From: a virus
Length of the DNA stretch: 38,390 bases
Virus record (IMG/VR): IMGVR_UViG_3300045988_008627
Direction: 5' to 3' (one strand)
The notes beneath the pieces were generated by a model, which was not told the origin of the DNA, ran no database searches, and was given only the letters and a program-made list of their open reading frames with translations. Positions 1-38,390 of this stretch are shown here, in pieces (positions within the stretch are counted from its first letter, which is position 1; the number at the start of each line of letters is the position of its first letter). Both the position numbers and the translations under genes were made by a program.

Positions 1-163
1 CGATTTCCTTTTCTGTCATGGCGTGCCCTCCATTGCCTTCCCCCACGCGGCCAGTTGGGCGCGGATGGCTGCGCAGAGCCCGCACGATTTCCTTTTCTGT
101 CATGGCGTGCCCTCCATTGCCTTCCCCCACGCGGCCAGTTGGGCGCGGATGGCTGCGCAGAGC
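1..163. repeat. Perfect tandem duplication with an 84-bp period (1-79 = 85-163); it continues across the window ends (38308-38314 = 78-84)
   Basis: Direct reading: nt 1-79 are identical to 85-163. The unit contains the stop codon of the DUF3102 gene and the ATG of the DUF551 gene (ATGA overlap). 84 nt is 28 codons, so the duplication is in frame. Confidence 0.9.
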
Positions 164-1137
164 TTTCCGACCTTGTCCTCGTCCTCGATGCGGCTGACAG
201 CCTGCGTCAGTTGGTTGAATGCCGCCTGCCACTGGCTGAAATGCAGCTGCGCGGCCGTCACGTCCTTGTCGGACATGGCAAGCTTTCTGCGCAGATCCTC
301 GACCTCTCTGCTCAGGCGCTCCTTTTCCGCGTCCGAAGAGGCGGTTTCCGCCATTGCCTTTGCCGCTGCCAGCTGCTGCTTCAGTCCCTCCGCCACCTTG
401 CGGACGCGCTCGATCTCCTGCTCGGTCTTTGTGGTCTGCTTCCGCCATTCGTCGGTTTTCTTGCGCAGCTCCGTTTCCGCCTGCGCCCGGACCTTGGCCT
501 CTGCGTCCCGGATCGCCTGCTCGTCGCGCTGGACAGCGACCTCAACGGGCCGGTTCTTGAGCGCCTCAAGCTCGTCCGCCATGCGGCAGGCCTCGTCCTT
601 CGCGGCGTTCAGCTCATCCTCCATGCCGCGCAGCTTCTCATAGGCCGCCTCGGCCTCTTTTTTCGCGTTCTCGGCGCGGAGGGAATCGCTGTTTGCCTGC
701 CGCAGGGCGCTTTCGCGCTCCTGCCGGGCGGCGTCCCGCTCCTTGATCGCTTTTTCCAGTTCCCGGGCGGAAAGATTCTCCGCATCGACTGCTTCGGCAA
801 ATTCCTCGCGCTCGTCTTCCGGCACGGCCAGAAGCCGCAAAGTATTGGAAATACTCAAATTTTGCAACGTTGACGAATTTGGTTCAGCTCCAAAAATGCC
901 GATCTGGGCCGCGCCGTACTCCTCGAAAATGCGCATCAGGCGCGATGCCTTGGTCTGTGAGAACTCCGTGTTTTTCTTGATCCAGTCTGCCCATCCTCCG
1001 TGCGGCACCATTTCCTTTGCCGCCGCCAGTCTCCGTCCGATCTCTATGGCGTAATACACCGTCATAGCCTTCGCCTGCCGGGTCAGCTCCCGAATTTCTC
1101 CTCCGAGCCGCTCCGGCGTTACTGTCAAATTGCTCAT
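100..1137 (-). CDS. DUF3102-family protein with a long C-terminal coiled-coil region
   Basis: ORF 100..1470 trimmed to ATG 1137 (GGAGG 7 nt upstream; ATGA overlap with the upstream stop). N-terminus MSNLTVTPERLGGEIRELTRQAKAMTVYYAIEIGRRLAAAKEMVPHGGWADWIKKNTEFSQ fits the DUF3102 pattern. The rest is E/A/K/R-rich and helical. Confidence 0.75.
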   Translation of the reverse strand: MSNLTVTPERLGGEIRELTRQAKAMTVYYAIEIGRRLAAAKEMVPHGGWADWIKKNTEFSQTKASRLMRIFEEYGAAQIGIFGAEPNSSTLQNLSISNTLRLLAVPEDEREEFAEAVDAENLSARELEKAIKERDAARQERESALRQANSDSLRAENAKKEAEAAYEKLRGMEDELNAAKDEACRMADELEALKNRPVEVAVQRDEQAIRDAEAKVRAQAETELRKKTDEWRKQTTKTEQEIERVRKVAEGLKQQLAAAKAMAETASSDAEKERLSREVEDLRRKLAMSDKDVTAAQLHFSQWQAAFNQLTQAVSRIEDEDKVGKLCAAIRAQLAAWGKAMEGTP

Positions 1138-2837
1138 GCTACTGCCTCCGTTTTCTGTTTCTTTCCGGCGATCTTCATCCGCCGGATGTGTTCGAGCCAT
1201 CTTTCTACAAATTTCTGCACTTCCTTTGTCGGCGCACAGTTCCGCAGACCGTGATTCTGAAGCTCTTTCACTGTTTTCAGTTCCACCTGCAGCGTGTACC
1301 ACGGCTTGTCCGGCGCGTCCGCGCGGCGGATGAAGAAAATGCAGCTTTCTCCGCGCGCCACGGTCGCGCCGTAGGTTCCGACGCAGTGGTGAAGGGCACT
1401 GCCCTCGTCGGCCAGCTCTTCCTCTGTGCGGACAGGCCGGATGCAGATCCCAGCGTCCTCCCAGGCCCACGCCTCCAGAGGCGCGACGACCTTCTCAAAT
1501 GCCGGGCGGCGCTTTTCGATCTTGGCCTGCTTCCTGCGCTTTTCTTCCTCATTCCGCGCGATCCGCTCCGCCTCCACGAGCCGGTCGTGCTCGCGCTTGA
1601 GGCTTTTCGGGAGCTGGACGTGCTCATCCCGCAGGTCAAGCCCGGCGCGGCGGGCCATACTCCAGTAGTCTAGCAGCGTTGTGATGTCGGACTTTTGCCG
1701 TTCCAGATACCGCAGGCAGCGCATGACGGTCAGCCGGCCGCGCCAGAGCTGCATGCTTTTTCCGCCCACGGCGTCCGGCAGCAGTGCCTTTTCGCTGCAC
1801 AGCTTGTTCAGCTCGTAGATCTGCAGTTTTTTCAGCAGGTTCCAGTCCTCCGGCAGCTTTACCGGCTCAAACGCCCGCACCATCTTGTATTTCGCAAGAT
1901 CGTCCTGCGTCCATTTCTCCCGGACGCAGAACGCAAATTCCTGCTTGTCGAGGCCCAGCATCCGGGCCGGGCGCTTCTGTTTCCAGTCGATCCATTCCAG
2001 TTTCGCGCTGTGCCCGCCGCAGTAGTCCCAGCTCTTCGTATCCCGCGTGATCGCCTTTGCGACCATGCCCCCGCAGCCCTGCACGATCAGATTCTCGATG
2101 TTCCGGTGCTTCTGCCAGAGGCGCAGATACGCGACGGGCCGCGCCTCGTCCCCGGCCGCTTTCAGGTACTGCGGCAGAGCGGCGTTCTCAATGGTCGTGC
2201 CGGAGAGATCTTCCGGCTTGCGGAACCAGTTTTCATCCAGCGTCTTGCCCCATCTATCGTCGCAGCGCTTCACCTGCCGCCAGCGGTCAAAATAACGGAT
2301 CGTGTTCATGAATTTCTGATTGCCTGTCAGCCGGACGGCCTTTTTCTGCTCAAATACATACGCCTCATACGGCCACATCCGGTATTCCTTCTTCGCGTCC
2401 TTGCCAATGTTCCGCTCTGCGCGCCAGCCCAGCAGGACGAATTTCTCTCCCAGCTGCCACGGTTCGCAGAAATAGACGTTGTCGTCGATCCCGGCCCTCG
2501 ACAGCTGCCCGATGTGCTTTGCCCGAAGCTCCGCGCCGCACTGCGGACAGCGGAATTTGTCTTCCGGGCCGATCTGCATGATGCCTTCCACGAAGCCGAA
2601 CGGCGCCCAGCCTTTGCCGCAGTCTGCGCCTTTGACTTTTTCTGCGATCCAGCTGTCGCCGCAGGCCGTGCAGGTCACGGAGACTGCGTTTTCGCGCATG
2701 CCGGTAAGCGGATCGCGGTAATATGTATCCCGGTAGATCGCGTATTCGGACTTGAATTTCGTCCGGATGCACCAGTCCAGCGCACCCTCGGACGGCTGCC
2801 TCGGCAGCCGCTCCTCATAATCGATCTGTTCGCTCAT
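1134..2837 (-). CDS. PcfJ-like domain protein (567 aa) with N-terminal zinc-ribbon motifs
   Basis: ORF 1134..2990 trimmed to ATG 2837 (ATGA overlap with the upstream stop). C-terminus EGSALHHCVGTYGATVARGESCIFFIRRADAPDKPWYTLQVELKTVKELQNHGLRNCAPTKEVQKFVERW matches the PcfJ-like signature as I recall it. N-terminal part has CTACG...CPQCG cysteine pairs. Confidence 0.7.
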   Translation of the reverse strand: MSEQIDYEERLPRQPSEGALDWCIRTKFKSEYAIYRDTYYRDPLTGMRENAVSVTCTACGDSWIAEKVKGADCGKGWAPFGFVEGIMQIGPEDKFRCPQCGAELRAKHIGQLSRAGIDDNVYFCEPWQLGEKFVLLGWRAERNIGKDAKKEYRMWPYEAYVFEQKKAVRLTGNQKFMNTIRYFDRWRQVKRCDDRWGKTLDENWFRKPEDLSGTTIENAALPQYLKAAGDEARPVAYLRLWQKHRNIENLIVQGCGGMVAKAITRDTKSWDYCGGHSAKLEWIDWKQKRPARMLGLDKQEFAFCVREKWTQDDLAKYKMVRAFEPVKLPEDWNLLKKLQIYELNKLCSEKALLPDAVGGKSMQLWRGRLTVMRCLRYLERQKSDITTLLDYWSMARRAGLDLRDEHVQLPKSLKREHDRLVEAERIARNEEEKRRKQAKIEKRRPAFEKVVAPLEAWAWEDAGICIRPVRTEEELADEGSALHHCVGTYGATVARGESCIFFIRRADAPDKPWYTLQVELKTVKELQNHGLRNCAPTKEVQKFVERWLEHIRRMKIAGKKQKTEAVA

Positions 2838-3187
2838 CCGAAGAAATCCTCCAGATTCACGATGTTTCCGGCCGGTGCAGGAGGTGCGGCGGGCTCCGGC
2901 TTCGGCGCGGCCGTCTGCTCCGGCAGACCGAAGTATTTGCGGATGATCTTCTCGGCCTCCTGGCCGGTGCAGCAGCTGCCGTTTTTGCACGCGAACGCCC
3001 GGATATTGGCCTCGCAGGCCTTGAGGCTCATGCCGCCGTGCTTCAGATCGTCCAGCACCAGCTTTGCCGCCGCCTCATCCGGCGCGATCATCTCCAACAA
3101 CTGCTCGCCGCACATCCACACCGGGCCGCGCGGCCCCTGTTGCTTGCGGATGATCTCCGTTACCTCTTGCAAATATGGATTTTTCAT
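2834..3187 (-). CDS. PcfK-like small protein; possible AcrIIA9-family anti-CRISPR homologue
   Basis: 117 aa, ATG 3187 with AAGGAGAG upstream. It lies directly upstream of and overlaps the PcfJ-like gene, the same pairing as pcfK-pcfJ. Motifs NPYLQEV near the N-terminus and TGQEAEKIIRKYFGL near the C-terminus resemble PcfK/AcrIIA9-family sequences from memory. Confidence 0.5.
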   Translation of the reverse strand: MKNPYLQEVTEIIRKQQGPRGPVWMCGEQLLEMIAPDEAAAKLVLDDLKHGGMSLKACEANIRAFACKNGSCCTGQEAEKIIRKYFGLPEQTAAPKPEPAAPPAPAGNIVNLEDFFG

Positions 3188-3237
3188 GGTATACTCTCCT
3201 TGTACTTAACTTGTTACGGGGAAGTTTAGGCTTCTCT

Positions 3238-3276
3238 GCCCTCGTCCGGCTGGAACCGGTCGAGGGCATTTTTTAT
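3238..3276 (+). terminator. Intrinsic-terminator-like hairpin oriented for the plus (antisense) strand
   Basis: GCCCTCGTCCGG (3238-3249) pairs with CCGGTCGAGGGC (3256-3267) with one mismatch and a 6-nt loop, followed by ATTTTTTAT on the plus strand only. Confidence 0.5.
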
Positions 3277-3530
3277 CCGAACATCCTGTCCGGCTGATAG
3301 CCGAGCTTGGCTACACTTGCCGTCTGGTGGTATTCCGGCCGCTTGAAGCTGTATCCCCAGCGCTTGGCCGCCCAGAAAAGGGCCGCCGTTTCATCCGCCG
3401 CGTGTACCGTCAGCTGGCGCCCTGCGTAATCCACCACGAAATAGTGCTTGCCGGAATATCCCGGCTGCTCGACGATGTCCGCGCGCTTCGCGGGCCGCTC
3501 ACCCGGATAGCTGATACTATTTTGCTGCAT
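3273..3530 (-). CDS. Hypothetical early protein (85 aa)
   Basis: ORF with ATG at 3530, same strand as its neighbours and overlapping the upstream gene. No family recognised. Confidence 0.6.
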   Translation of the reverse strand: MQQNSISYPGERPAKRADIVEQPGYSGKHYFVVDYAGRQLTVHAADETAALFWAAKRWGYSFKRPEYHQTASVAKLGYQPDRMFG

Positions 3531-4930: not shown

Positions 4931-5164
4931 TTAATAGCCTCCTTCGTGTTCCAGCAGCCAGTTTTTCAGCTGCACCTGCGCAACCGCGAAGCACAGCTCC
5001 GCGTCGCAGTCCTGGACGTTGACAAGTTCTTCGTCGTCCCCGTCGTAGGCGGTTCCCCTCCGCCACACCCGGACACCCCAGTCCGTCACCTTGCTATAGG
5101 TGATCTCAAGGTGCATTGGGTATGTCCGCACCTTCTCGGCAAAAAACTTGAGGAAATCATCCAT
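4931..5164 (-). CDS. Hypothetical early protein (77 aa)
   Basis: ORF 4931..5224 trimmed to ATG 5164 (MDDFLKFFAEKVRTYPMHLEITY), which overlaps the upstream gene end by 8 nt. Confidence 0.55.
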   Translation of the reverse strand: MDDFLKFFAEKVRTYPMHLEITYSKVTDWGVRVWRRGTAYDGDDEELVNVQDCDAELCFAVAQVQLKNWLLEHEGGY

Positions 5165-5333
5165 TCTTCTTCGTCTCCTCCTGTTCCTGTTCCCGGCGGT
5201 ATCGTTCCGCCGCCCAGCGGGCAAAGGCGTCGATCACGGGTTCGCCGTTTTCTTCGCCGGGATGCTTAAATTCAAAAGTTTCGCCGGGGAGAAATCTCCC
5301 GTCCGGCCCCCGTTTCCCAAAAACGGCGATCAT
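5157..5333 (-). CDS. Hypothetical early protein (58 aa)
   Basis: ORF 5157..5390 trimmed to ATG 5333 (MIAVFGKRGPDGRFLPGETFEF), just downstream of the previous stop. Confidence 0.5.
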   Translation of the reverse strand: MIAVFGKRGPDGRFLPGETFEFKHPGEENGEPVIDAFARWAAERYRREQEQEETKKNG

Positions 5334-5537: not shown

Positions 5538-5566
5538 ATCATACACTAAGCTAATTAACTTGTCAA
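5538..5566 (-). promoter_or_regulatory. Early (lytic) promoter
   Basis: On the minus strand: TTGACA (5566-5561), a 17-nt spacer, then TATGAT (5543-5538). It points into the early operon. Confidence 0.7.
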
Positions 5567-5648: not shown

Positions 5649-6023
5649 ATGCAAACTTTTCAGGATCGGCTTCGCTCCCTGATTGATACGCTCGGCATTA
5701 CAAAAACAAAATTTGCCGAAGATCTGCACGTTTCGTCCGCATTTGTTTCCATGCTCTGTTCTGGCAAGTCTCAGCCAAGCGACCGCACGATAGCGGATAT
5801 TTGCCGGAAATATAATGTGAGCGAGACGTGGCTCCGCACCGGCGAGGGCGAAATGCGGCAGAAGCTGACACGGAATCAGGAGATTGCGGAGTTTATGGGC
5901 GTCGTGATGCACGATCCCGACGACGCGCCGCGCAAGCGGTTCGTATCGATCATCAGCAAACTCAGCGCCGACGAGTGGCGGCTGCTGGCTGAGATCGCAA
6001 AAAAAATGGCCGAGGACGAATAA
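5649..6023 (+). CDS. XRE-family HTH repressor (CI-like, 124 aa), no peptidase domain
   Basis: LRSLIDTLGITKTKFAEDLHVSSAFVSMLCSGKSQPSDRTIADICRKYNVSETWLRTGEGEM is a typical phage-repressor HTH. The gene is divergent from the early operon. The C-terminal 55 aa are too short for an S24 autocleavage domain. Confidence 0.8.
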   Translation: MQTFQDRLRSLIDTLGITKTKFAEDLHVSSAFVSMLCSGKSQPSDRTIADICRKYNVSETWLRTGEGEMRQKLTRNQEIAEFMGVVMHDPDDAPRKRFVSIISKLSADEWRLLAEIAKKMAEDE

Positions 6024-10474: not shown

Positions 10475-11059
10475 TTAGCCGTTGCAGCACCCGCACTTCG
10501 GGATCGGGTTGTAGAGCGACTGCGCCGTCGTTGCGGTTCCGGTCGTGACGTCGGCGACCTGCTTGGGGTAAAAGGTCGCGTTGACATACGTCACGATGGA
10601 ATTGTCACCGCAGCAGCGCCGCTCGGCCTCCATCTTCACGGCGTCCAGCGCCTCCTTGCGGACGCAGTCCACATCCTGCTTGACGAGCGTAAAGCTGTCC
10701 TCGGTGCGCTGGTTGTGGACGGCCTGCTTGCACAGTGCCTCACGGACGTCCTTGAGCTGCCCGTCGATATAACCGTACATCTCCACCATTTTCTGGTCGT
10801 TGTACGTGTTGGCCTTGAGCAGCGCAATCTCGCTGTCTTTCGCGGACAGCTTCTGCTCCCGGTCGAGATCGTAGCGCGTGACCGGCATGTTTTCGCTGCA
10901 CGCTGCGCCCGCTACCATTGCAGCCGCAGCCGGGTTTGCTCCCCAGCCGCCAAAGCCGCCGCCCAGCAGATTGCCCAGCAGGCCGAGTCCGACACCTGCC
11001 GTGCCGATGATGCCAGTGGTCAGGGCCGCATTGGCCTTGCCATTGCTTGCGTATTCCAT
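10475..11059 (-). CDS. Gly-rich hydrophobic N-terminus, coiled coil and Cys-rich C-terminus protein (194 aa)
   Basis: ORF 10475..11305 trimmed to ATG 11059 (GGAGG upstream). Features are the hydrophobic GIIGTAGVGLGLLGNLLGGGFGGWG, then CSENMPVTRYDLDREQKLSAKDSEIALLKANTYNDQK, and a C-terminal CGCCNG. It resembles an uncharacterised Firmicute-prophage family (from memory). Confidence 0.6.
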   Translation of the reverse strand: MEYASNGKANAALTTGIIGTAGVGLGLLGNLLGGGFGGWGANPAAAAMVAGAACSENMPVTRYDLDREQKLSAKDSEIALLKANTYNDQKMVEMYGYIDGQLKDVREALCKQAVHNQRTEDSFTLVKQDVDCVRKEALDAVKMEAERRCCGDNSIVTYVNATFYPKQVADVTTGTATTAQSLYNPIPKCGCCNG

Positions 11060-11218
11060 AAAAAAATACCTCCGGTAAAAATAAGTAAGCTGGCCAGCTC
11101 CTATCCTCAGTCTACCGCTTCCCCGATTCTCGAGGGGGACATCTGCGGGACACTTCCGGGGCGTTTGTGTACCATTTGCGTGGCTTTTTGTTTTTTTATA
11201 AAATATTTTGAAAACCCC

Positions 11219-11247
11219 TTGACATATACGGTAATACAGTATATAAT
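11219..11247 (+). promoter_or_regulatory. Perfect consensus sigma-A promoter
   Basis: TTGACA (11219-11224), exactly 17 nt of spacer, then TATAAT (11242-11247). It is followed by a CA/A-rich leader and a GGAGG site. Confidence 0.8.
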
Positions 11248-11303
11248 GTAACCATAGACACAAAGCAAAACAAACACGACAAAAAAATTGGAGGATGGCA
11301 GAC

Positions 11304-11681
11304 ATGTTTAATATCGTTTCCGCGTGGGGAACGCAGACAAATCCCCACTATAACCCTGACACTGCAAATAATGGCGGAGGTTACTGGCAGTTTTCCGGCG
11401 GTATCGTTGTCGACCTTAACGGCCAGCTTGTCACCGTCGAGGTCGACGACACGTCCTGCGGCGATTTTGGCAGCCGCGTGTATTTTTCCGTGACCGCTGA
11501 CGGCTTCTGCTGGCAATTTTCCGACGGCACAATGGACGATGCGTCCGTTGACACCTCGGAGGATGTCTTGGGCGTTCTGAGGTCCATCTCCGGCGTTCTG
11601 GGCGTGGACGCCGAAGCACTGATTTCTGCCGCGTTGAATGCGACGAACATCTGCGCGTGGGAGGTATGCTATGCCGACTGA
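11304..11681 (+). CDS. Acidic hypothetical protein with a duplicated WQFS(G/D)G motif
   Basis: ORF 11295..11681. ATG 11304 lies 9 nt after GGAGG, whereas ATG 11295 abuts the SD. The motifs GYWQFSGG and GFCWQFSDG recur, and the protein is D/E-rich. No family recognised. Confidence 0.6.
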   Translation: MFNIVSAWGTQTNPHYNPDTANNGGGYWQFSGGIVVDLNGQLVTVEVDDTSCGDFGSRVYFSVTADGFCWQFSDGTMDDASVDTSEDVLGVLRSISGVLGVDAEALISAALNATNICAWEVCYAD

Positions 11682-11883
11682 CACCCAGCGCCGCGCTCGC
11701 AACAAGTGGGATGCAGAAAACATGTCCGTGATCCCATGCAAGCTAAAACGGGAGATCGCGGAAACCTTTAAGGCTACGGCGAAAGCCAATGGCACTACCC
11801 CGAATGAACTGATTCGCAAATGGATCGATGCGTATATGCGGCAAAACATGCCAGCAGAGCAACCTTCGACTGAAAAAATATGA
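11671..11883 (+). CDS. Ribbon-helix-helix (Arc/CopG-like) small DNA-binding protein
   Basis: ATG 11671 with GGGAGG 6 nt upstream, overlapping the upstream gene by 11 nt. RRARNKWDAENMSVIPCKLKREIAETFKATAKANGTTPNELIRKWIDAYM fits the beta-strand, helix, helix RHH pattern. Confidence 0.6.
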   Translation: MPTDTQRRARNKWDAENMSVIPCKLKREIAETFKATAKANGTTPNELIRKWIDAYMRQNMPAEQPSTEKI

Positions 11884-11891
11884 TTTGAATG

Positions 11892-11936
11892 TAAAAAAGC
11901 CCGCCCGGAGCGTAATGCTCAGGGCGGGCTGCTTTG
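11892..11936. terminator. Bidirectional intrinsic terminator (stronger for the minus strand)
   Basis: AGCCCGCCC (11898-11906) pairs with GGGCGGGCT (11922-11930). A6 upstream gives a T6 tract on the minus strand. The downstream tract on the plus strand is GCTTTGTG. Confidence 0.75.
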
Positions 11937-12161
11937 TGCCAGACGGCGGGCGGTGTTGTAGATGTGCGGCAGGCGGCGGGAGATGGTTTTGCGGTCGATG
12001 CCGATTTCACCGGCCGCGTCCAGCTGCGGGAGCCTGCGCACGATATAAAGTCTCACGATCTGCTGATCGATCACGTCCAAAAGTCCCTCGTCAGTGACGC
12101 GCTCCCAGTCGCTGCGCGTGAGGTGTTCCAGCTCCTTCGGCAGAGCCAGCCGCGCAGTTAT
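11919..12161 (-). CDS. Orphan HTH ORF (80 codons open) with no canonical start codon at its 5' end
   Basis: My own translation: ITARLALPKELEHLTRSDWERVTDEGLLDVIDQQIVRLYIVRRLPQLDAAGEIGIDRKTISRRLPHIYNTARRLAQSSPP. GGGAG (12175-12171) lies 9 nt before ATA 12161. The first ATG/GTG/TTG is TTG at codon 28. The HTH looks like sigma-70 region 4. Confidence 0.4.
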   Translation of the reverse strand: MTARLALPKELEHLTRSDWERVTDEGLLDVIDQQIVRLYIVRRLPQLDAAGEIGIDRKTISRRLPHIYNTARRLAQSSPP

Positions 12162-12198
12162 TTGCTGTCACTCCCTTCGGCCCGCCGCCGGGCAGGGC

Positions 12199-12897
12199 TT
12201 ACTTCATGGCCGCAGCCAGCTTTTTCAGGAGGTCGTCGCCGTATTTGTAATCGGCAAGATACTTGATCGTGCTGTCTGCCAGCCCGGCTTTCGCCTTGAT
12301 GGTCTCCTTGGCCGCCTCGACGGCCTTGTCGACGGTTTCCGTGTCGTAGTCGACCCACGGGAGCTTGCCGTGCTTCTTCCATCTGCGGGCGTTGTACCCG
12401 CTCTTGGAGCCGATGTTCAGGACGGCGGTGATCTGTGCGCCGTTCTTCCAGGCAGGCGTGCACTCGACCGCGAGGCCGTCGCCGATGTACATGCCCCAGT
12501 GCCCGGGCAGCCACAGGCCTTCGCCCGGGACGAGCTTGTCCCAGCCGGTCGCAGACACGTCCTTGCACTTGGCGATCATGCCGTCGGCGGAGACATCCGG
12601 GACAGCGTTACCGGCGTAGCGCGCGCCGCCGTGGTAGGCGTTCTTGTCGCCCTTCCAGCCCCAGAGAATGCCCTTCGTGAGGTTCACGCAGTCAAAGGCG
12701 AAATAGCCCTTGCCGATCAGCGCACGGAGGTTTGCCTGCTTCGCCGCGCCGTACCAGTCCGGGTACTGGTTCGCCTTTTCCGTGATAATGCCGTTCGTGA
12801 CGGGAGAGCCGAAGCAGCCCCACATGTAAACGGTCCTGTAATTCTTCGCGGCGTCAATATGCCGCCTGACGAGCTCGGAGGCTTTCATAACGCTCAT
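12199..12897 (-). CDS. Endolysin, probable Cys-His peptidase type (NlpC/P60- or CHAP-like)
   Basis: ATGA-coupled to the holin gene. FAFDCVNLTKGILWG is a candidate catalytic Cys, and LWLPGHWGMYIGDGLAVE a candidate catalytic His. The position is typical for an endolysin. Confidence 0.65.
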   Translation of the reverse strand: MSVMKASELVRRHIDAAKNYRTVYMWGCFGSPVTNGIITEKANQYPDWYGAAKQANLRALIGKGYFAFDCVNLTKGILWGWKGDKNAYHGGARYAGNAVPDVSADGMIAKCKDVSATGWDKLVPGEGLWLPGHWGMYIGDGLAVECTPAWKNGAQITAVLNIGSKSGYNARRWKKHGKLPWVDYDTETVDKAVEAAKETIKAKAGLADSTIKYLADYKYGDDLLKKLAAAMK

Positions 12898-13202
12898 GCC
12901 CGCTCACTCCCGTACAACTCGTGGTGCAGCTGCAGCACGGCGGCCTCGATCAGCTTGTCGACGGTCTCAACGTCAAATTTAATACCTTTCTCGGCGAGGA
13001 AGTTCACAACATACGCCTTTTTCGCCGCACCGTCCGTCGCGGTGTACAGCTGCTCCGCCGCCTTTACGCCGATCTCAACGTAAGTGCGGAGCGTTTGCAG
13101 CTTGTCCGCGTCGATCTTTGTTTTGAGCCACGGGATCAAAAATGCCGAGACGAGCGCGCTGATGAGCGCGATCACTGCCGAGATGATTTGCGTGTAGTCC
13201 AT
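12894..13202 (-). CDS. Holin, LL-H family-like
   Basis: The N-terminal TM segment IISAVIALISALVSAFLIPWL is followed by VEIGVKAAEQLYTATDGAAKKAYVVNFLAEKGIKFDVETVDKLIEAAV, which matches the LL-H holin pattern. The gene is directly upstream of the endolysin. Confidence 0.7.
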   Translation of the reverse strand: MDYTQIISAVIALISALVSAFLIPWLKTKIDADKLQTLRTYVEIGVKAAEQLYTATDGAAKKAYVVNFLAEKGIKFDVETVDKLIEAAVLQLHHELYGSERA

Positions 13203-13220
13203 AAGTAATTACTCCTTTCG

Positions 13221-13484
13221 CTATTCGACTGTTTCATTTTTCTTCGCAAAAACCCGCTTGAAGGCAAGCAGGCCAAGCTCTGTGATGGTTGCCCAACCTG
13301 TAAATCCGAGCACGTCGGACAGGTCTACCGACGCGCCGAGCTCCGGGCTGCGGATGACTGCAATTAGGACGGCGACGGTTTTCAGAGCGCAGGCCCAGAC
13401 AATTACCGTCGTGATGAGCTGGAGCAGATATACAACAATGGTTCGCGCCATTTCGCCCTTGCTCCACTTGCCTTTTACCCGCAT
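13221..13484 (-). CDS. Small membrane protein (2-3 TM segments), holin or antiholin candidate
   Basis: 87 aa with hydrophobic segments IVVYLLQLITTVIVWACAL, TVAVLIAVI and VLGFTGWATITELGLLAF, located in the lysis cassette. Confidence 0.55.
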   Translation of the reverse strand: MRVKGKWSKGEMARTIVVYLLQLITTVIVWACALKTVAVLIAVIRSPELGASVDLSDVLGFTGWATITELGLLAFKRVFAKKNETVE

Positions 13485-13498
13485 ATCTGCCTCCCAAT

Positions 13499-13843
13499 TT
13501 ATTGCGCACTGCTATGTCCGCATTGCGCCTCCAGCTGGTGCAGGAACTTTTTCACATCGCCGTTCCCGCCCATTTTTTTATACTTCTCTCCGGCGATCAG
13601 ACGTTCTGCCATTGGCATTTCCTCTGACATGATGGTCAGACGGAGAATTGCGAGATACTGCTCGTTCTGATGCGTCTGCATCTTGTCGAGCTTCTTGTCG
13701 ATCTCGCCTAGGTGTTCCTCCTGCGTTGAGGCCTTGCCGTGCTTTTTCTGTATCGCGCCGACGACGGCGTTGACAACCGCCGTCAGCGCGGACGAGCCGA
13801 ACACGGCGCAGACGAGCGTAACGATGATGGTCTTGGTGTCCAT
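13499..13843 (-). CDS. N-terminally membrane-anchored protein (114 aa)
   Basis: The TM segment IIVTLVCAVFGSSALTAVVNAVVGAI is followed by a helical soluble part. The gene lies between the fibre genes and the lysis cassette. Confidence 0.55.
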   Translation of the reverse strand: MDTKTIIVTLVCAVFGSSALTAVVNAVVGAIQKKHGKASTQEEHLGEIDKKLDKMQTHQNEQYLAILRLTIMSEEMPMAERLIAGEKYKKMGGNGDVKKFLHQLEAQCGHSSAQ

Positions 13844-13867
13844 GGTGTTCTCCCTTCTTCTCGTAAA

Positions 13868-14266
13868 TTACGCCTGTTCCTGCCAACCAGCCGGATATTC
13901 CGCTGGTGAAAATACATTCCCGTCAATCAAGCTGATGTAATGCTTGCCTTCAAACGTCACCTTGTCACCCTTATTGTAGGCATCATGCGCACCCGTAGGT
14001 TGCACAAATTCCGGCCATTCCTCTAGTGAAACGATCACAAACAGTGCCGGTGTAATATCCGGTGTCCAGTCTGCCTGTGAGGTATGCGCCTGCACCACGC
14101 GATATAATACGCCATTGTATTGCAGCCGATCATCGACCGCGTAAGAATGGCCTGTCACCCACTGTGGGAATAACTCTACTGCTTGCAGTGCATCCTCATC
14201 GGGTAAGCTAATAGACGCTTTTTCAATATAGGGTCTCAATGCTCTGGCTCTTTCTGTGTAACTCAT
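13868..14266 (-). CDS. Protein with two CBM5/12-like carbohydrate-binding repeats
   Basis: YAVDDRLQYNGVLYRVVQAHTSQADWTPD and YNKGDKVTFEGKHYISLIDGNVFSPAEYPAGWQE resemble the chitin-binding-type Y-x-G-D-x-V-x-Y-x-G-x-x-Y...W motif. ATG 14266 has GGGGAGA upstream, and TTG 14269 is an alternative start. Confidence 0.55.
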   Translation of the reverse strand: MSYTERARALRPYIEKASISLPDEDALQAVELFPQWVTGHSYAVDDRLQYNGVLYRVVQAHTSQADWTPDITPALFVIVSLEEWPEFVQPTGAHDAYNKGDKVTFEGKHYISLIDGNVFSPAEYPAGWQEQA

Positions 14267-14577
14267 CAATCTGTCTCCCCAAGTAAAATTTTCGCCGCTG
14301 TTTCTGCATCTGTGAGTGGCAGTGCCGCGCCCATTTCCTCATAGCTGCCTTCTGGCTCAGTACCTTTCAGCGTATGGTCTGTGAGATGAAACACCATGTC
14401 AGAAAGCACCTGATGTTCAGTTCCTTCTTCATCCGTAATAGTCACAGCCATCTTCGCGCAAAATCCTTCTGCCTGATCTTCCTTGCACGGGACATAACAA
14501 CCGTTGCCGTGCAGTCGGATGGGCACAATACTGTCCGCATACCCGGCAAACGCGCCGTCCTGTTTTACTGCATACAT
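14266..14577 (-). CDS. Hypothetical tail-region protein (103 aa)
   Basis: ORF 14266..14676 trimmed to ATG 14577 (MYAVKQDGAFAGYADSIVPIRL), which overlaps the upstream gene end. Confidence 0.5.
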   Translation of the reverse strand: MYAVKQDGAFAGYADSIVPIRLHGNGCYVPCKEDQAEGFCAKMAVTITDEEGTEHQVLSDMVFHLTDHTLKGTEPEGSYEEMGAALPLTDAETAAKILLGETD

Positions 14578-14936
14578 GGTATCCCTCCAAATTTCTCTTG
14601 ATAAATTTTCTCTAATCGCTCTGTGCTTGCGGTACGCAGCCGGTTTTTCCAGTACCCGTTTTCCTGCCCCGGCCATTTGTCATCCGTAAAGTCTTCACCG
14701 CAGCCGTGCTTTTCGTACCATCGATAGAGAAGTTCAAGCATTTCTTGCCGCTCTTCTCCTTCCTGCGTGTTCGGCCTGAAATGCTCCCATCCGTTTTCAG
14801 ACGTTGTGGCGCATATCCGCCTGCCGTCCGCTGCAAACAGGAACCCTTCGATCTCCGATACCACAGTTCCGTACCGGAGATTAAATTCTCCATCTATTCC
14901 TGCTCCGCGGAAACGCTTATACACGATATACTCCAT
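14565..14936 (-). CDS. Hypothetical tail-region protein (123 aa)
   Basis: ORF 14565..15071 trimmed to ATG 14936 (GAGGGA 7 nt upstream), just after the upstream stop at 14948. Confidence 0.5.
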   Translation of the reverse strand: MEYIVYKRFRGAGIDGEFNLRYGTVVSEIEGFLFAADGRRICATTSENGWEHFRPNTQEGEERQEMLELLYRWYEKHGCGEDFTDDKWPGQENGYWKNRLRTASTERLEKIYQEKFGGIPCMQ

Positions 14937-14947
14937 GCGCTTTTCCC

Positions 14948-16090
14948 TCATACGCAAAAGCCGGGTGGGAAGCCGAAGGAAGCGCGCGCGGTGTGGTCTT
15001 CGACTGTCCCGTTGGTGTTCACATTCTCGAAACCGTCGGAGCTGCTCGCAAGCGGAGAACGGAGCCACCAACGAGCGGCGGCACTCGTTCCGTTGTGCTT
15101 GTACTTTACCTTGCTGTTTCCAGCGGAATAATAGGCGTACTGCGCTTGCTTACTCGCCTCGTTCGAGTTTGCTCTCGAAATGCTCCCGAAAACCTCAAAC
15201 TCCGAGAGGAGGAAAAAGTAATCCTTTGTCGCCGTGACCGCACTCGCGGATGTGCTATTATTTCCCGTATTGTCCGTGTACTTGGTAACGGACTTTAGGA
15301 CTGCACGGAGCGCCGCCGGAATGACTGCGATAATCGTTCCGGAATAGCTCGAGAGGCTTGTCCCGCAAATATTTGTACGCATTTGCGAGCTCGCCCATCC
15401 GCCGGAGTTCGTTGCACTACTGTTCATAGAGAAATAGCCGGTTGTCGAAACGGGCGAGGTATAGTAACTATCGCAGAAACACACGTCCGTACCGCCGGAG
15501 AGCGCGGTCTTTGCAAGTTGGAAATGGATACGGTTTTCCCCTTCTAGGCTCGCGTTATGGTTAAATCCAATAATGAACGCATATGTTGTGTAATTAGATA
15601 GTGTAAGATGTCCAACCGTGCCGTTTAGCGTTACAGCCTTTCGGTCACCGACGCTCCAATAGTTCGCGCCCTGTCCCGCGTCGGATATATCTTTTATTGT
15701 TTCCCAAGTATTTTTATTCAGTGTCGGATATACAAAATTAAGCGACACCGCGTAACTGTCCGTGATAGTTACGGCTTTTGTGTCGGACGTTTTCCCGTCC
15801 AGTGTCGCAGATACGCTCCATGTTCCGGCTTCCGGAACGATAAGCGTGCAAACGCCGGTGCTGTCAGATGTTCCTCTGATCGTTTTTGAGCCGTTCGTCG
15901 CCGTGACCGTCGCACCGGCAGATACTGTTACGATCAGCCGCAGAGCGATTCCGGTCTGAATCGTACCGATTACTGCGGCAAGCCCTTCGATGGTCTGTGC
16001 CGCAGGGGCTGTGCCGCCTTTGGCCTCCACTGCGTCATACGCCGCGCCGACTGCCGTGATAATGCGGTCGATCTCGGTCTGTACGCTCAT
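14948..16090 (-). CDS. Receptor-binding or tail-fibre protein with a C-terminal WWLRSP lectin-like domain
   Basis: The N-terminus MSVQTEIDRI is shared with the neighbouring fibre gene. The C-terminus DYFFLLSEFEVFG...AARWWLRSPLASSSDGFENVNTNGTVEDHTARASFGFPPGFCV matches the recurrent xWWLRSP...G(V/F)xP(A/G)F domain of phage RBPs. Confidence 0.65.
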   Translation of the reverse strand: MSVQTEIDRIITAVGAAYDAVEAKGGTAPAAQTIEGLAAVIGTIQTGIALRLIVTVSAGATVTATNGSKTIRGTSDSTGVCTLIVPEAGTWSVSATLDGKTSDTKAVTITDSYAVSLNFVYPTLNKNTWETIKDISDAGQGANYWSVGDRKAVTLNGTVGHLTLSNYTTYAFIIGFNHNASLEGENRIHFQLAKTALSGGTDVCFCDSYYTSPVSTTGYFSMNSSATNSGGWASSQMRTNICGTSLSSYSGTIIAVIPAALRAVLKSVTKYTDNTGNNSTSASAVTATKDYFFLLSEFEVFGSISRANSNEASKQAQYAYYSAGNSKVKYKHNGTSAAARWWLRSPLASSSDGFENVNTNGTVEDHTARASFGFPPGFCV

Positions 16091-16103
16091 GTCTGTTCCT
16101 CCT

Positions 16104-16985
16104 TTAGATCGCGGCGAGGGCGTTTTCGATGTCGTCCGTCAGGCTGACTGTGCCGCCGGAGGTATAGCCTGCGGGGATGTCTACGCTGGTCTGCGTGAGG
16201 CCGTCGATGGTCTTTGCAATCGCGCCGTTGTTTGCCATCGTGCCCTCGACTTTGCTGCCGTCTGCCAGCACGATAAACTTGCCGTCCAGCACGTCGGCGG
16301 CTCCGGCAGTCACGCCGGAAACGTCCTTGTATTTGTCCGGAATCGCGCCGACCTTGACCTTGCCGAGGACTTTGCCCTTTGTGGGCGTAATGTCCTGCGC
16401 GGCCTCGGCAGGCGTGGCGGACTTGGTTTCCAGCACGACGGATACCTTGCCCGCGCCGGAGTGCTTGCCCGCCGGGACGGTGTATTCCTGATTGCCGGCC
16501 GTCGCGTCCAGGACCTTTTCGACCGCGCCGTTGTCCGGCATGGTGCCAGCCTGCGTTACGCCGTCTGCATCGATAAAGACTTTATTCGCCAGCACGTCAG
16601 CGGGCGCGGCGGTCGTGGCGGAGACGTCCTGATAGTTTTCCGGGATCGCGCCGACGGTCACACCGGACAGGCCGTAATAGCCCTGATCGGGCGTGACGGC
16701 CTGCTGCTCCTTCGTCGGCGTTACCGACTTGGCTTGCAGCTGGTAGTTGCCGCCGCCTCCGACGCCCTTGACCGTTCCTGTGCCGTCGTGGTAGCCCTTC
16801 GGGACGGTATAGCTCTCGCCCTCCTTGACCTGCGCGTCGACCGCGCCGTTATTCTTGATGGCGGCGGCCTTGTCGGCCAGCGTGCCGAGCTTGTCCGTGC
16901 TCGCGGCGAGGCCGAGGCCGACGAGCCATGTGCGCAGCTTGTTCCGCGCGGTCTGCAATCTTGTAATTTCAGTCTGTGTGCTCAT
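16104..16985 (-). CDS. Tail-fibre protein with three internal repeats of about 90 aa
   Basis: The N-terminus is MSTQTEITRL. The repeated blocks contain NNGA(V/I)...Y(T)VP.G(Y/K)H.G.G.V...TPTK...VGAIP(E/D)(N/K)Y(Q/K)DVS...ADVL...GTM(P/A)(D/N)NGA. Confidence 0.65.
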   Translation of the reverse strand: MSTQTEITRLQTARNKLRTWLVGLGLAASTDKLGTLADKAAAIKNNGAVDAQVKEGESYTVPKGYHDGTGTVKGVGGGGNYQLQAKSVTPTKEQQAVTPDQGYYGLSGVTVGAIPENYQDVSATTAAPADVLANKVFIDADGVTQAGTMPDNGAVEKVLDATAGNQEYTVPAGKHSGAGKVSVVLETKSATPAEAAQDITPTKGKVLGKVKVGAIPDKYKDVSGVTAGAADVLDGKFIVLADGSKVEGTMANNGAIAKTIDGLTQTSVDIPAGYTSGGTVSLTDDIENALAAI

Positions 16986-31837: not shown

Positions 31838-32608
31838 TTAATTTAAGCGGCTCCCGTTCCGCTTGTGCTCTGATCTTGGATCGACTACATACTTATAATA
31901 TTGATACCCGTACTTTGTCGTCCGAGCCTCGACGAGGATATAGCCGCGCGGGGCGACGGGCGGATGCTTTGGGCTGTACTCGCGCACGGCCTCGGTCGCA
32001 GGTTCCGGCTCGGGGCGGATACAATTTCGCGTCGCCTTGTACCGGTGGCCGCCGAATTCTTTTCTCCAGTGCGCATGCAGGTAACTGGCAAGTGCTGTGT
32101 AGTCCTGGCCGTGGTCGACCTTATTTCCCTGCTCATCTATATAATAGTTGTGCTTTCGCAGGTGCCGAACCTCGATCACGCTGCCGAGCCCCCAAAGCCC
32201 GCCGATAGCTTCTTCCGGGATTCCCTCTGTTACCAGGTGCAAATGGAAGCGATTGGTTGTTTTTCCTCTTCCGTAGAAAGCAACGATTTTGGCCTCCGGA
32301 TAGTGATACTGCATGCGGCGCACAAGGTTGTCGCGCACTCTGCGCATTTCCTCTGCGGTATGTACCTCGTTTTCTGTATCCAATGTCAGGGTGGAATACA
32401 GGCTTGTGGGCGAGAAATTGGCGTTCATCAGCGCAACGAGCCGATCCAGCGATTGCTTACTGTTGAATTCCTCGCGTTCTTCCTGCGACTGGAACCGCGG
32501 CTTCTTTGGCCGGCTGGTCTTCGGATCCGCGCCATCGGACACGGTATAAACGATCTGCGTACATACCGCCCCTGTAAACAGGCGGCGCTTGTGTCTCTTT
32601 GCCATCAT
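31838..32608 (-). CDS. HUH-superfamily Rep-like protein (putative rolling-circle initiator, Rep_1-like motifs)
   Basis: LYSTLTLD (motif I-like), NRFHLHLVTEG (the HUH motif) and TALASYLHAHWRK (a candidate Tyr motif). ATG 32608 has AAGAGG 5 nt upstream; GTG 32614 and ATG 32605 are alternatives. Confidence 0.5.
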   Translation of the reverse strand: MMAKRHKRRLFTGAVCTQIVYTVSDGADPKTSRPKKPRFQSQEEREEFNSKQSLDRLVALMNANFSPTSLYSTLTLDTENEVHTAEEMRRVRDNLVRRMQYHYPEAKIVAFYGRGKTTNRFHLHLVTEGIPEEAIGGLWGLGSVIEVRHLRKHNYYIDEQGNKVDHGQDYTALASYLHAHWRKEFGGHRYKATRNCIRPEPEPATEAVREYSPKHPPVAPRGYILVEARTTKYGYQYYKYVVDPRSEHKRNGSRLN

Positions 32609-32699
32609 CCACACCTCTTTCTCCCGGGCGGACAGAGCCGTCCGCCCCTACAGGTCCATCTGCCCGCTCAAAGCGTGGCCGGAGATTCCGGCCACAATT

Positions 32700-35407: not shown

Positions 35408-35839
35408 TTAAATCTCCTGTATGTCGATTCCAAATTTTGATCGCATGAATTTCCGGTTGCGCAGATACTCCTTTGTCCGCGTCGGCGTGGACTTCACATC
35501 CTCGACGACGAGCTTGCCGCCGAATTTGTACGAGAAGTCCGCCGTGTACCGCACCGCGCGAATGCGCTCGCCAGTCTCGGTGATGTAGCTCTCCTGCAAG
35601 GTGAACTGCGGTTGCAGGCGCAGATCGGAGATAATGCCAGCCCGGAGCATCACCATCAGCTCGTCATACCGCTGCGCCTCCTTCTGGCTGTCGAACCGGA
35701 TCCCGGCCCGCTCGGCAGGCGCGTTGTGGTACTTGGCCGCGCTCTGCTGCGCCCGCGCCTCCGGGAGCACCTGCCGCGCGTAAGCCTCCCGCATCCTCGG
35801 CGGCATGTCCGCCATGCTTTCAAACCGCAGTCCGCTCAT
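35408..35839 (-). CDS. DUF1064-family protein (putative Holliday-junction-resolvase-like nuclease)
   Basis: KYHNAPAERAGIRFDSQKEAQRYDELMVMLRAGIISDLRLQPQFTL matches the DUF1064 signature KYxNxK...FDSxxEaxRYxeL...LxxQpxF. Confidence 0.75.
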   Translation of the reverse strand: MSGLRFESMADMPPRMREAYARQVLPEARAQQSAAKYHNAPAERAGIRFDSQKEAQRYDELMVMLRAGIISDLRLQPQFTLQESYITETGERIRAVRYTADFSYKFGGKLVVEDVKSTPTRTKEYLRNRKFMRSKFGIDIQEI

Positions 35840-36150
35840 TCGGCAGCTCCATCCATCTTCGCCCCGCAGTTGGGGCAGTATTTGTAATTCAGCAAGCTCA
35901 CGTCATCGTCCGTCTCAAAGCACCACTCTTCGCTGCAAAGGGAGCACTGAATTGTTGTGAGGCTATTCCAGTCATCATCTGCTCGCAGCCACTGTCCATG
36001 CACCACCTCCGCAACGTCGGCGGCGGGCTGACGCAGCAGGAGCGTTTTTACCCGCTGCGGTGTCCAGTTCGGATTTTCCGCGTTGCAGGATTCAAAGTCT
36101 TTCAGTGCCTCGGTTCTGCTGATAAATTCTTCAGTCGCAACGTTTTCCAT
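35836..36150 (-). CDS. Hypothetical protein with a C-terminal zinc ribbon (104 aa)
   Basis: ORF trimmed to ATG 36150 (GGAGGGAG 7 nt upstream). Contains VVHGQW...CSLC...CPNCGAKMD. Confidence 0.55.
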   Translation of the reverse strand: MENVATEEFISRTEALKDFESCNAENPNWTPQRVKTLLLRQPAADVAEVVHGQWLRADDDWNSLTTIQCSLCSEEWCFETDDDVSLLNYKYCPNCGAKMDGAAE

Positions 36151-36397
36151 CGTCAAACTCCCTCCAAGTGTGATACAGTGCCCATGCCAGCGGGTCACGG
36201 ACGAACGGCATCTTTTTTGCTTCCGCGTATTTCTTATCAAGGATGCTCATGGCCTTCTTCCACGCGCGATCTCCAACGTGCAGTTCGGCGGGGAAGTATA
36301 TCCTTTCCAGTCTGTCGATGTCCCCGACGTGCAAGCGAGCAGTCCCGCGCTCGTCAAAGAGCGCGTAGACGTCCTTGTCTTTGATGTAACCAATCAT
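36131..36397 (-). CDS. Hypothetical protein (88 aa)
   Basis: ORF 36131..36430 trimmed to ATG 36397 (AGAGGGGGAA 7 nt upstream). Confidence 0.5.
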   Translation of the reverse strand: MIGYIKDKDVYALFDERGTARLHVGDIDRLERIYFPAELHVGDRAWKKAMSILDKKYAEAKKMPFVRDPLAWALYHTWREFDDGKRCD

Positions 36398-37738: not shown

Positions 37739-37953
37739 GCTTGTCTCCTTCCTCCGGCGCGTCCGGTAGTTTGTGTTATGTCCAGTTTCTGAAATAGACG
37801 CACCCGGTAACAGAGTTTTCCACACCGTTCACAGATTGCGTAATTTGTGTGATACTTCCCACCGTGCCGGTTGCTTCTGCGGCGTGTTACCTGCACATAC
37901 GTATACTTGTCCAGCTTGTGCAGACCCATGCGGCAAAGAAGGGGGCTTTTCAT
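37735..37953 (-). CDS. Small hypothetical protein (72 aa)
   Basis: ATGA-coupled at both ends. Contains GLHKLDKYTYVQ...CERCGKL. Confidence 0.5.
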   Translation of the reverse strand: MKSPLLCRMGLHKLDKYTYVQVTRRRSNRHGGKYHTNYAICERCGKLCYRVRLFQKLDITQTTGRAGGRRQA

Positions 37954-38333
37954 AAATCCACCTCCGGTGCTTCCGGCGGCGGCATCCAGTGAGTAATCAA
38001 GTTCTGCGGTACCTCCCAGTTATCGCACGTCCATCCGTCGCTCGGAAAGTATCTTGCCATATCTACAATCGAGCCGCCCGCGTCCCGAAAAGCAACGAGA
38101 TATTTGCTGAGACGGTCTATTGGCAGTCTGTCCTCCACGCTGATCCACTGCGGCACCTTCTCCCGCAGCGCCGCGTTCTCGGCGGTCAGGCGCTCGATTG
38201 CGTTAGCTGCCGCAAACTCGATGTATTCCCGCCGATCTTGGATTTCTCCGACCTTGCAGTTTTCGCACGCGTCGTCGTGTCCAAGCCCCTTCGCGCAGCA
38301 CCGCAGCGCCCGCACGATTTCCTTTTCTGTCAT
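37950..38333 (-). CDS. DUF551-domain protein; may carry a 28-aa N-terminal extension through the duplicated junction
   Basis: WISVEDRLPIDRLSKYLVAF...ITHWMPPPEAP is the DUF551 signature. ATG 38333 is the copy of the ATG that overlaps the DUF3102 stop. The frame stays open upstream to the window end and, after circular closure, to ATG 103. Confidence 0.7.
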   Translation of the reverse strand: MTEKEIVRALRCCAKGLGHDDACENCKVGEIQDRREYIEFAAANAIERLTAENAALREKVPQWISVEDRLPIDRLSKYLVAFRDAGGSIVDMARYFPSDGWTCDNWEVPQNLITHWMPPPEAPEVDL

Positions 38334-38390
38334 GGCGTGCCCTCCATTGCCTTCCCCCACGCGGCCAGTTGGGCGCGGATGGCTGCGCAG
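38308..38390. repeat. Terminal direct repeat with the window start (38315-38390 = 1-76 = 85-160; 38308-38314 = 78-84)
   Basis: Direct comparison of the two ends. The DUF551 gene start at the right end is the continuation of the DUF3102 stop at the left end. Confidence 0.9.

Follow-up and report, generated by a model that had tools for sequence, protein, structure and literature searches.

An all-or-none cassette of PcfK-like, PcfJ-like and DUF3102 genes in an early-operon slot of a gut Oscillospiraceae phage: a candidate counter-defence unit

What does a coupled set of PcfK-like, PcfJ-like and DUF3102 genes do in a phage? The question is raised by the IMG/VR virus record IMGVR_UViG_3300045988_008627, a DNA stretch of 38,390 nucleotides (the window, by which we mean the whole of this stretch), whose minus strand carries these three genes side by side. 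A preliminary description had named the trio a conjugative-element module at the end of the phage early operon, and had proposed that its first gene, as a relative of the Cas9 inhibitor AcrIIA9, might be an anti-CRISPR or anti-defence gene. The window is a temperate phage of gut Oscillospiraceae and encodes the phage hallmark proteins TerL, portal, HK97-type capsid, large serine recombinase and CI-like repressor, with which the label of a conjugative-element module does not agree. The three open reading frames (ORFs) were recovered exactly where they had been placed:

2834..3187, minus strand: PcfK-like protein, 117 aa; ORF with a ribosome-binding site (RBS); phrog_36399, function unknown
1134..2837, minus strand: PcfJ-like protein, 567 aa; PF14284; phrog_8470 (E 8.5e-79), function unknown
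100..1137, minus strand: DUF3102 protein, 345 aa; PF11300; phrog_15609, function unknown

Both junctions (PcfK-like/PcfJ and PcfJ/DUF3102) are 4-nt ATGA overlaps, the tight coupling described earlier, and each of the three starts is preceded by its own GGAGG-type Shine-Dalgarno sequence.

The place of the trio in the phage genome was assessed in a set of siblings anchored on the replication initiator (Rep). Among 248 IMG/VR relatives, 80 were examined, and 44 of them, with Rep proteins 80-100% identical to that of the window, had at least 9 kb of upstream sequence. The whole trio was found in 10 of these 44 contigs, a partial trio in none and no trio in 34. The trio-less siblings keep both flanks, i.e., a homologue of the 3273-3530 gene on one side and DUF551/ASCH genes on the other, and carry ~0.9-2.6 kb of other DNA in place of the trio. 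Nucleotide homology to them (blastn) breaks off at position 3287 and is back at ~19-40, which are exactly gene boundaries. The borders of the slot are as follows:

3273..3530, minus strand: early gene, 85 aa; no PHROG match; left flank of the slot, conserved in relatives with and without the trio
3188..3287, minus strand: left edge of the cassette, a leader with a hairpin and the RBS of the PcfK-like gene; blastn breakpoint at 3287
1..163, strand not applicable: right cassette edge, at the contig junction; stop codon of DUF3102 overlapping the start codon of DUF551; homology to trio-less siblings resumes at ~19-40
37950..38333, minus strand: DUF551 gene (PF04448, E 8e-9); fourth coupled gene and conserved right flank of the slot

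The trio is an accessory, all-or-none, co-inherited cassette located in a hypervariable slot of the early operon. Since 34 of the 44 phages with the same Rep lack it entirely, it is dispensable and plays no essential replication role in this lineage; an essential replication module, the outcome that the preliminary description had set against its own proposal, is rejected on the same count. The earlier suggestion that the three genes act together is supported by their coupling, their co-occurrence wherever both flanks are present, and their gain or loss as one. The siblings also amount to a natural experiment: near-isogenic phages that differ only in one slot, occupied either by the trio or by different cargo, in many cases a DNA-modification gene.

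The sibling cargo includes proteins with Pfam matches to C-5 methylase (E 1.5e-36), N6_N4 methylase (E 1.3e-26), Dam (E 6.3e-36) and a PAPS reductase domain (E 3.7e-19), and further proteins with radical SAM-like and Mom-like matches below the cut-off. The 10 kb upstream of Rep contain at least one DNA-modification-type gene in 22 of the 34 trio-less loci and in 1-2 of the 10 trio-positive ones, the window having none. Such enzymes are a classical phage route to evade restriction. Because the slot region mostly carries them in trio-less siblings, a counter-defence role gains positional support, and to this extent the anti-defence part of the earlier proposal has been strengthened. Like the trio, these orphan DNA methyltransferases and other modification genes are accessory and lie in the same region, between the same flanks and Rep, and the two kinds of cargo are largely mutually exclusive; unlike them, the trio resembles no methylase, PAPS reductase or radical SAM enzyme, nor Mom. 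The slot of most trio-less phages (25 loci, e.g., L097, positions 5116-5307) also contains a gene for a conserved 63-aa protein (MRFVCDACQD...), which occurs alone or with methylase or PAPS-reductase genes, has no Pfam match and is not encoded by the window.

The all-or-none presence of the trio and its sharp, reproducible breakpoints at gene boundaries, together with the zinc ribbon and the invariant His, Cys and Asp residues of PcfJ (see below), would also suit a selfish mobile cassette, in which PcfJ would be a site-specific nuclease or recombinase spreading the three genes among related phages. We hold this highly improbable, since PcfJ has no nuclease or recombinase family match, no flanking repeats were detected except for a duplication at the contig ends, and the same slot exchanges many unrelated cargoes, which makes variability a property of the slot and not of the trio.

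The function that we tentatively favour, with a confidence somewhat short of even, is that of an early-expressed counter-defence cassette. It would shield phage DNA, on entry or during replication, from nucleases of the host (restriction enzymes, CRISPR effectors or both), and would do the job that orphan DNA methylases or other DNA-modification enzymes do in many siblings. The basic zinc-ribbon PcfJ would be the nucleic-acid-binding or catalytic core, the PcfK-like protein its obligate partner or adaptor, docking via a conserved C-terminal acidic-hydrophobic peptide, and the DUF3102 protein a second scaffold, of coiled-coil type and probably associated with DNA. The family assignments, the coupling, the co-inheritance, the dispensability and the nature of the slot are shown by the sequences; that the cassette is expressed early, binds DNA and acts against defence is what we infer, as is each step of this mechanism. 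A bolder version, which we regard as unlikely, makes PcfJ the catalytic core of an unrecognised DNA-modifying or DNA-shielding system, with the PcfK-like protein as an adaptor acting through its C-terminal peptide and DUF3102 as a DNA-bound scaffold. If true, the cassette would be a protein-based equivalent of the sibling methylases, common to phage early regions and to the plasmid regions with PcfK-PcfJ, and Cas9 inhibition by AcrIIA9 would be one read-out of a broader nuclease evasion, not the activity of a dedicated Cas9 binder.

The family assignment of PcfJ holds far above the cut-off: PF14284 matches aa 388-544 (E 3.3e-37, 128 bits against a cut-off of 25, profile positions 2-147 of 147), and the same domain is precomputed in 120 PcfJ homologues among the matches listed. 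Of the zinc ribbons previously noticed at the N-terminus, a Cys4 ribbon is present, whose residues C56, C59, C97 and C100 are invariant in 59 full-length homologues, down to 30% identity; the other invariant residues in this set include D390, H417, H484, C485, Y489 and R504. In the AF2 model (pLDDT 91.4, pTM 0.75) a beta-rich N-terminal domain with the Cys4 ribbon is followed by a helical middle part and the C-terminal alpha/beta PcfJ domain, and a pI of 9.1 with a net charge of +19 marks the protein as strongly basic. A Foldseek comparison of this model with PDB returned only noise (best E 0.06, TM at most 0.1), and sequence and profile searches of PDB with the trio proteins gave nothing beyond zinc-ribbon or coiled-coil noise. 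No similarity of the trio proteins to primase, helicase, loader, recombinase or nuclease families was found in Pfam, PHROG and NCBIfam, or, for PcfJ, in PDB. The locus is of interest as a defined three-gene unit with sharp boundaries and as the source of a confident PcfJ model that has no solved counterpart. In the literature searched, no study was found on the function of either protein of the PcfK-PcfJ pair, of DUF3102 or of the three-gene unit.

The DUF3102 protein, too, is what it had been called: PF11300 matches aa 7-134 (E 8.1e-43, 146 bits against a cut-off of 24.4, profile positions 2-129 of 129), and the N-terminal domain is followed by a coiled coil of ~200 aa in an acidic protein (pI 5.4). 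Its matches in PDB, NCBIfam and PADLOC are of coiled-coil type only, apart from a marginal one of the DUF3102 domain to the PADLOC candidate family PDC-S02 (E 1e-3). In PADLOC, the PcfK-like protein and PcfJ have no match, and the remaining DUF3102 matches are weak and of coiled-coil type (JetC, LmuB). Stand-alone DUF3102 proteins are known from streptococcal phages (Abc2 orf24, Javan623_0012); they share with the window protein the N-terminal domain and helical tail, and are encoded early, just after a Cro-like regulator, but they have no PcfK or PcfJ beside them and show ~20% identity overall.

The weak PDC-S02 match is a hint at a prophage-borne system that benefits the lysogen, whether by defence, superinfection exclusion or a toxin-antitoxin-like activity, and variable prophage slots often hold defence genes. 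Such a role is nevertheless improbable: none of the PADLOC matches is significant, those other than PDC-S02 being coiled-coil noise; the genes are co-directional and coupled within the lytic early operon, downstream of a candidate promoter, and do not lie beside the repressor or integrase; the other cargo at or near the slot consists of DNA methylases, not of nucleases or abortive-infection genes; and the PcfK-PcfJ pair occurs in virulent phages of Herelleviridae size as well.

The call of the 117-aa protein as PcfK-like stands as remote homology and fails as membership of the Pfam PcfK family. Pfam gave no match for it even at E<=1, the PF14058 model not being reached, and NCBIfam gave no match either; the latter has no AcrIIA9 or PcfK model, and even a protein named 'AcrIIA9 family' by NCBI obtains no match there. 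None of 161 close homologues has a precomputed Pfam domain. A profile search of 1.84 billion representatives yielded 348 relatives, and among 118 of them sampled (27-45% identity), 0/118 matched PF14058 at E<=0.01 and none matched an NCBIfam model. Positive controls were recognised by PF14058: SpyM3_1131 of phage 315.3 with E 1.6e-13 and gp54 of phiCs5676-1 with E 4.9e-6. Because the window protein and all 118 sampled relatives fail this model, they are treated as a separate sequence subfamily of ~350 representatives.

The relationship was detected by comparing alignments with hhalign. The alignment of the window family (A2) matched that of PF14058 members (A3) with 96.4% probability (E 1.3e-9, 108 columns), and alignment A1 matched A3 with 95% (E 3.7e-8), the negative control (A2 against a DUF3102 alignment) giving 0.5%. 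With an independent E. faecalis PcfK domain the probability was 52% (E 1.4e-4) over the 47 columns of the core. The PcfK reference alignment contains 8 sequences, and is small because the search for homologues of the C. estertheticum AcrIIA9-family protein gave only 6 proteins. In its AF2 model (pLDDT 76) the 117-aa protein forms a bundle of five helices and has a disordered linker; the two top-ranked BFVD matches of the model carry the name 'PcfK-like protein' (probability 0.99 and 0.77, TM ~0.5), with weak E-values (0.096 and 0.45), and Foldseek against PDB returned nothing, no solved PcfK or AcrIIA9 structure having been found. Gene order points the same way as the profiles. Immediately upstream of PcfJ, Streptococcus pyogenes phage 315.3 and Clostridium phage phiCs5676-1 encode a PF14058 protein, and on C. 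estertheticum and E. faecalis plasmids the gene upstream of PcfJ is annotated 'Cas9 inhibitor AcrIIA9 family protein'. The order PcfK before PcfJ is kept with canonical PcfK in four reference loci (L001, L002, L003 and L009), and with the window subfamily in all related loci. Assignment of the 117-aa protein to a divergent subfamily of the PcfK family, remotely homologous to the PF14058 members and outside that Pfam family, is well supported by profile comparison and gene order.

Across the subfamily, a variable, low-complexity linker, rich in Pro and Ala in the window protein, leads to a C-terminal motif, [IV][IV][DN]L.DF[LF], conserved in the 118 relatives and reading NLEDFFG in the window. 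Canonical PcfK proteins end in QLDLFGALV (phage 315.3) or EIDLFEGEDF (E. faecalis plasmid), and the C-terminal peptide looks like a short linear motif for docking to a partner. Two more specific readings of the protein were rejected: (i) a canonical beta-clamp motif, its spacing being unlike QL[SD]LF, though PcfK of phage 315.3 has an exact QLDLF; and (ii) a DNA mimic, the net charge being merely -2.4 at pI 5.4.

The claim that AcrIIA9 belongs to the PcfK family is correct, as AcrIIA9 carries the Pfam PcfK domain (PMC6739104). It is a protein of 141 aa from a human gut metagenome, reported to prevent both binding and cleavage of target DNA by Cas9; its homologues come overwhelmingly from Bacteroidetes, are rarely found with Aca genes or self-targeting spacers, are present in hosts without type II-A systems, and have ArdA and SSB among their published neighbours. 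The AcrIIA9/PcfK family (PF14058) resembles the window protein in being small and helical, in lying directly upstream of PcfJ with the start and stop usually overlapping, and in its architecture, a core domain that is joined through a variable linker to a short C-terminal peptide of hydrophobic-acidic character. The difference is that the window protein fails PF14058, and its homology was measured against PF14058 members, not against AcrIIA9 itself. The remote PcfK/AcrIIA9 link is consistent with a counter-defence role.

This link could also be taken to mean that the 117-aa protein alone is an AcrIIA9-like type II-A anti-CRISPR, with PcfJ and DUF3102 as functionally separate neighbours; its favourable point is the relationship, however remote, to a PcfK-domain protein reported to block Cas9 binding and cleavage. 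We judge this quite improbable. Strict co-inheritance and joint loss of the three genes argue against their independence, the homology lies below the Pfam threshold, and AcrIIA9 homologues are overwhelmingly bacteroidetal. Moreover, no adjacent helix-turn-helix (Aca-like) gene was detected, the 85-aa neighbour at 3273-3530 having been scanned against PHROGs and not Pfam; the surroundings, with 3273-3530 and DUF551 as neighbours and PcfJ and DUF3102 as partners, are not those of an Acr-Aca operon. With remote homology, genes that are never separated, and AcrIIA9 homologues found mainly in Bacteroidetes and often in hosts without type II-A systems, the idea of a stand-alone Cas9 inhibitor is much weaker than the counter-defence reading.

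PcfJ-domain genes were found in 291 phage records, large virulent phages included, and in 578 plasmid records, 529 of them from Enterococcus; since they are present in both, conjugative elements are not the only home of the PcfJ family. Every IMG/VR locus having both flanks (43/43) contains the complete trio, and so does every untruncated GTDB locus (7/7), the latter from uncultured Oscillospiraceae, Dysosmobacter, Oscillibacter ruminantium and a metagenome-assembled genome of Clostridia. Three further prophage lineages (L004-L008) have it complete too, and it is conserved at PcfJ identities as low as 30%. The order of the genes is constant except in one locus, where DUF3102 has moved upstream with linkage retained. 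Related trio loci carry an integrase or serine recombinase, CI/Cro-like genes, an initiator of REP_ORF2-G2P type and terminase, and are prophages by this gene content. Around PcfJ in 30 loci, a PcfK-like gene is present in 30/30 and DUF3102 in 29/30, the other early genes being mosaic (2-23/30). The full trio was seen only in phage or prophage loci and in none of the plasmid loci examined, and the window type, with the N-terminal zinc-ribbon PcfJ, only in phages and prophages of Oscillospiraceae and other Clostridia. The PcfK-PcfJ pair without DUF3102 occurs in the examined plasmids and in streptococcal and clostridial phages. The view that the trio is typical of conjugative elements and not of phages is thereby reversed: the trio was met only in phages and prophages, and the examined plasmids have the pair alone.

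Such pairs (pCF10-type Enterococcus plasmids, phages 315.3 and phiCs5676-1, and plasmid pCF004-C of C. estertheticum) share with the window the gene order, tight or overlapping junctions and the C-terminal PcfJ domain. They differ in having no DUF3102, and their PcfJ has only the C-terminal half in common with the window PcfJ or shows ~23% identity over the full length.

Some relatives carry further genes of note close to the trio. Some have genes similar to Tad2 and AcrIC5 at 1-4 kb downstream of the trio, and judging from these sequence matches this stretch of early genes may be one where anti-defence genes are grouped; the Pfam matches concerned, Tad2-like (PF11195) and AcrIC5 (PF22147), are at 9186-10119 of L005/L006 and 11588-12685 of L007, all divergent prophages. 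In the prophage of Oscillibacter ruminantium GH1 (L062, positions 10852-16533), DUF3102 is followed by an overlapping gene for an 847-aa fusion of SNF2-related and N6_N4 DNA-methylase domains, and then by an ASCH gene, a radical-SAM-like gene and a prophage DnaN beta-clamp with all three Pfam clamp domains.

The neighbours of the PcfK-PcfJ pair bear on the main rival of the counter-defence cassette, a module accessory to DNA establishment or replication. Such a module would assist DNA that has just entered or is replicating, through recruitment of the host replisome or repair proteins, priming, or protection of intermediates that are single-stranded or nicked, and any inhibition of Cas9 by members of the family would be a side effect. 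The pair is surrounded by genes for RecT, a replication initiator and RNase H in phages 315.3 and phiCs5676-1 and adjoins SSB, thermonuclease and PcfM genes on an E. faecalis plasmid, and DUF3102 alone occurs in the early regions of streptococcal phages, just upstream of replication modules. A basic PcfJ with a zinc ribbon would suit this role, as would the PcfK ends, composed of a linker and an acidic-hydrophobic peptide (QLDLF in 315.3, EIDLF on the E. faecalis plasmid) that we take to resemble clamp-binding or SSB-tail docking motifs; the O. ruminantium prophage has its own DnaN clamp nearby. On the other hand, most of the 34 same-Rep phages (of 44) that do without the trio have DNA-modification and not replication genes in that region, the tail of the window subfamily (L-x-D-F-F/L) is off the canonical QL[SD]LF spacing, and there is no similarity to a primase, helicase, loader or recombinase. 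We consider an establishment module possible yet doubtful.

The counter-defence reading can accommodate part of the same evidence: SSB, thermonuclease and PcfM neighbours, like the ArdA and SSB neighbours reported for AcrIIA9 homologues, are presumably typical of plasmid regions expressed on entry, and are consistent with it. The Tad2-like and AcrIC5-like genes of relatives and the lack of a significant PADLOC match also speak for it. Several points weigh on the other side. No fold or sequence match supports the mechanism. Position shows accessory cargo only, and 12 of the 34 trio-less siblings have no recognisable DNA-modification gene in that region. The PcfK homology is remote, being below the Pfam threshold, with weak Foldseek E-values and 52% over 47 columns to the E. 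faecalis PcfK. Known Acrs are usually small stand-alone genes, whereas the PcfK partner is tied to a large, well-conserved PcfJ across phages and plasmids. AcrIIA9 homologues are rarely near Aca genes or self-targeting spacers and occur in hosts lacking type II-A, and in the streptococcal and clostridial phages the PcfK-PcfJ pair sits inside a replication/recombination module.

The families themselves are already known, and 'AcrIIA9 family' is a standard annotation. New are (i) a PcfK subfamily undetected by Pfam, (ii) its obligate linkage, in phages of Oscillospiraceae, to DUF3102 and a PcfJ with a zinc ribbon, and (iii) the occurrence of the three genes as all-or-none cargo in a slot whose region is in other cases often taken by DNA-modification genes. 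Few 'anti-CRISPR' annotations in gut metagenomes are as widespread as those of the PcfK/AcrIIA9 family, whose near-universal partner is PcfJ. The function of the cassette would show whether such labels mark Cas9 inhibitors or a broader role in DNA protection or establishment, shared by phages and conjugative plasmids.

The trio had been placed at the end of the early operon. Positions 1-76 are identical to 38315-38390 (a terminal overlap of 76 nt), which makes the contig circular or permuted, and a fourth coupled gene, DUF551, comes next, its ATG being overlapped by the DUF3102 stop; the trio is hence not at the operon end. Across the contig junction and beyond DUF551 the operon continues to ~31 kb, through an ASCH gene and a DUF1064 gene to the replication initiator, which is followed by a transcriptional activator located directly before terminase; the initiator thus precedes this late activator. 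No helicase, primase, SSB or recombinase was found among the early genes scanned, the initiator being the sole recognisable replication gene. The regulatory and replication features are as follows:

5649-6023, plus strand: CI-like repressor gene (Pfam HTH_3 and Phage_CI_repr); divergent, faced by the candidate early promoter
5538..5566, minus strand: candidate sigma-70-like early promoter; consensus scan, TTGACA-17-TATGAT, 11/12
31838-32614, minus strand: replication initiator, 258 aa; phrog_3584, with PF23343 (REP_ORF2-G2P) in relatives

Facing the divergent repressor gene, this strong sigma-70-like site (5566-5538) makes it plausible, judging from the sequence, that the trio is expressed early.

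The leader of the cassette contains a GC-rich hairpin without a U-tract (~3230-3263, minus strand), between the stop of the 3273-3530 gene and the RBS of the PcfK-like gene. The RNA fold of 3185-3290 has a dG of -32.3 kcal/mol (z -3.7), and the hairpin, which lies within the swapped cassette, could be an element of RNA processing, stability or attenuation.

At the contig junction there is an 84-bp tandem duplication (1-79 = 85-163), joined at a 9-nt microhomology between the DUF3102 3' end and the DUF551 5' end (window positions 1-163 and 38302-38390); a relative (L067) has one copy only of the 84-bp unit. The duplication is either real and in-frame or an assembly artefact at the contig ends. 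If it is real, the DUF551 protein would be extended by 28 aa, or the second ATG stays in use.

Two other parts of the operon were noted. A pair of tandem overlapping paralogues (36443-36898 and 36867-37313, minus strand; 151 and 148 aa; phrog_38832, function unknown) has common DNA segments that are 91-92% identical. A 134-aa protein encoded at 35836-36240 (minus strand) has a weak match to a Lar-like restriction-alleviation PHROG (phrog_6422, E 8e-4) and one to the PADLOC candidate PDC-M14A (E 5e-4), and may be a second anti-restriction candidate within the same operon.

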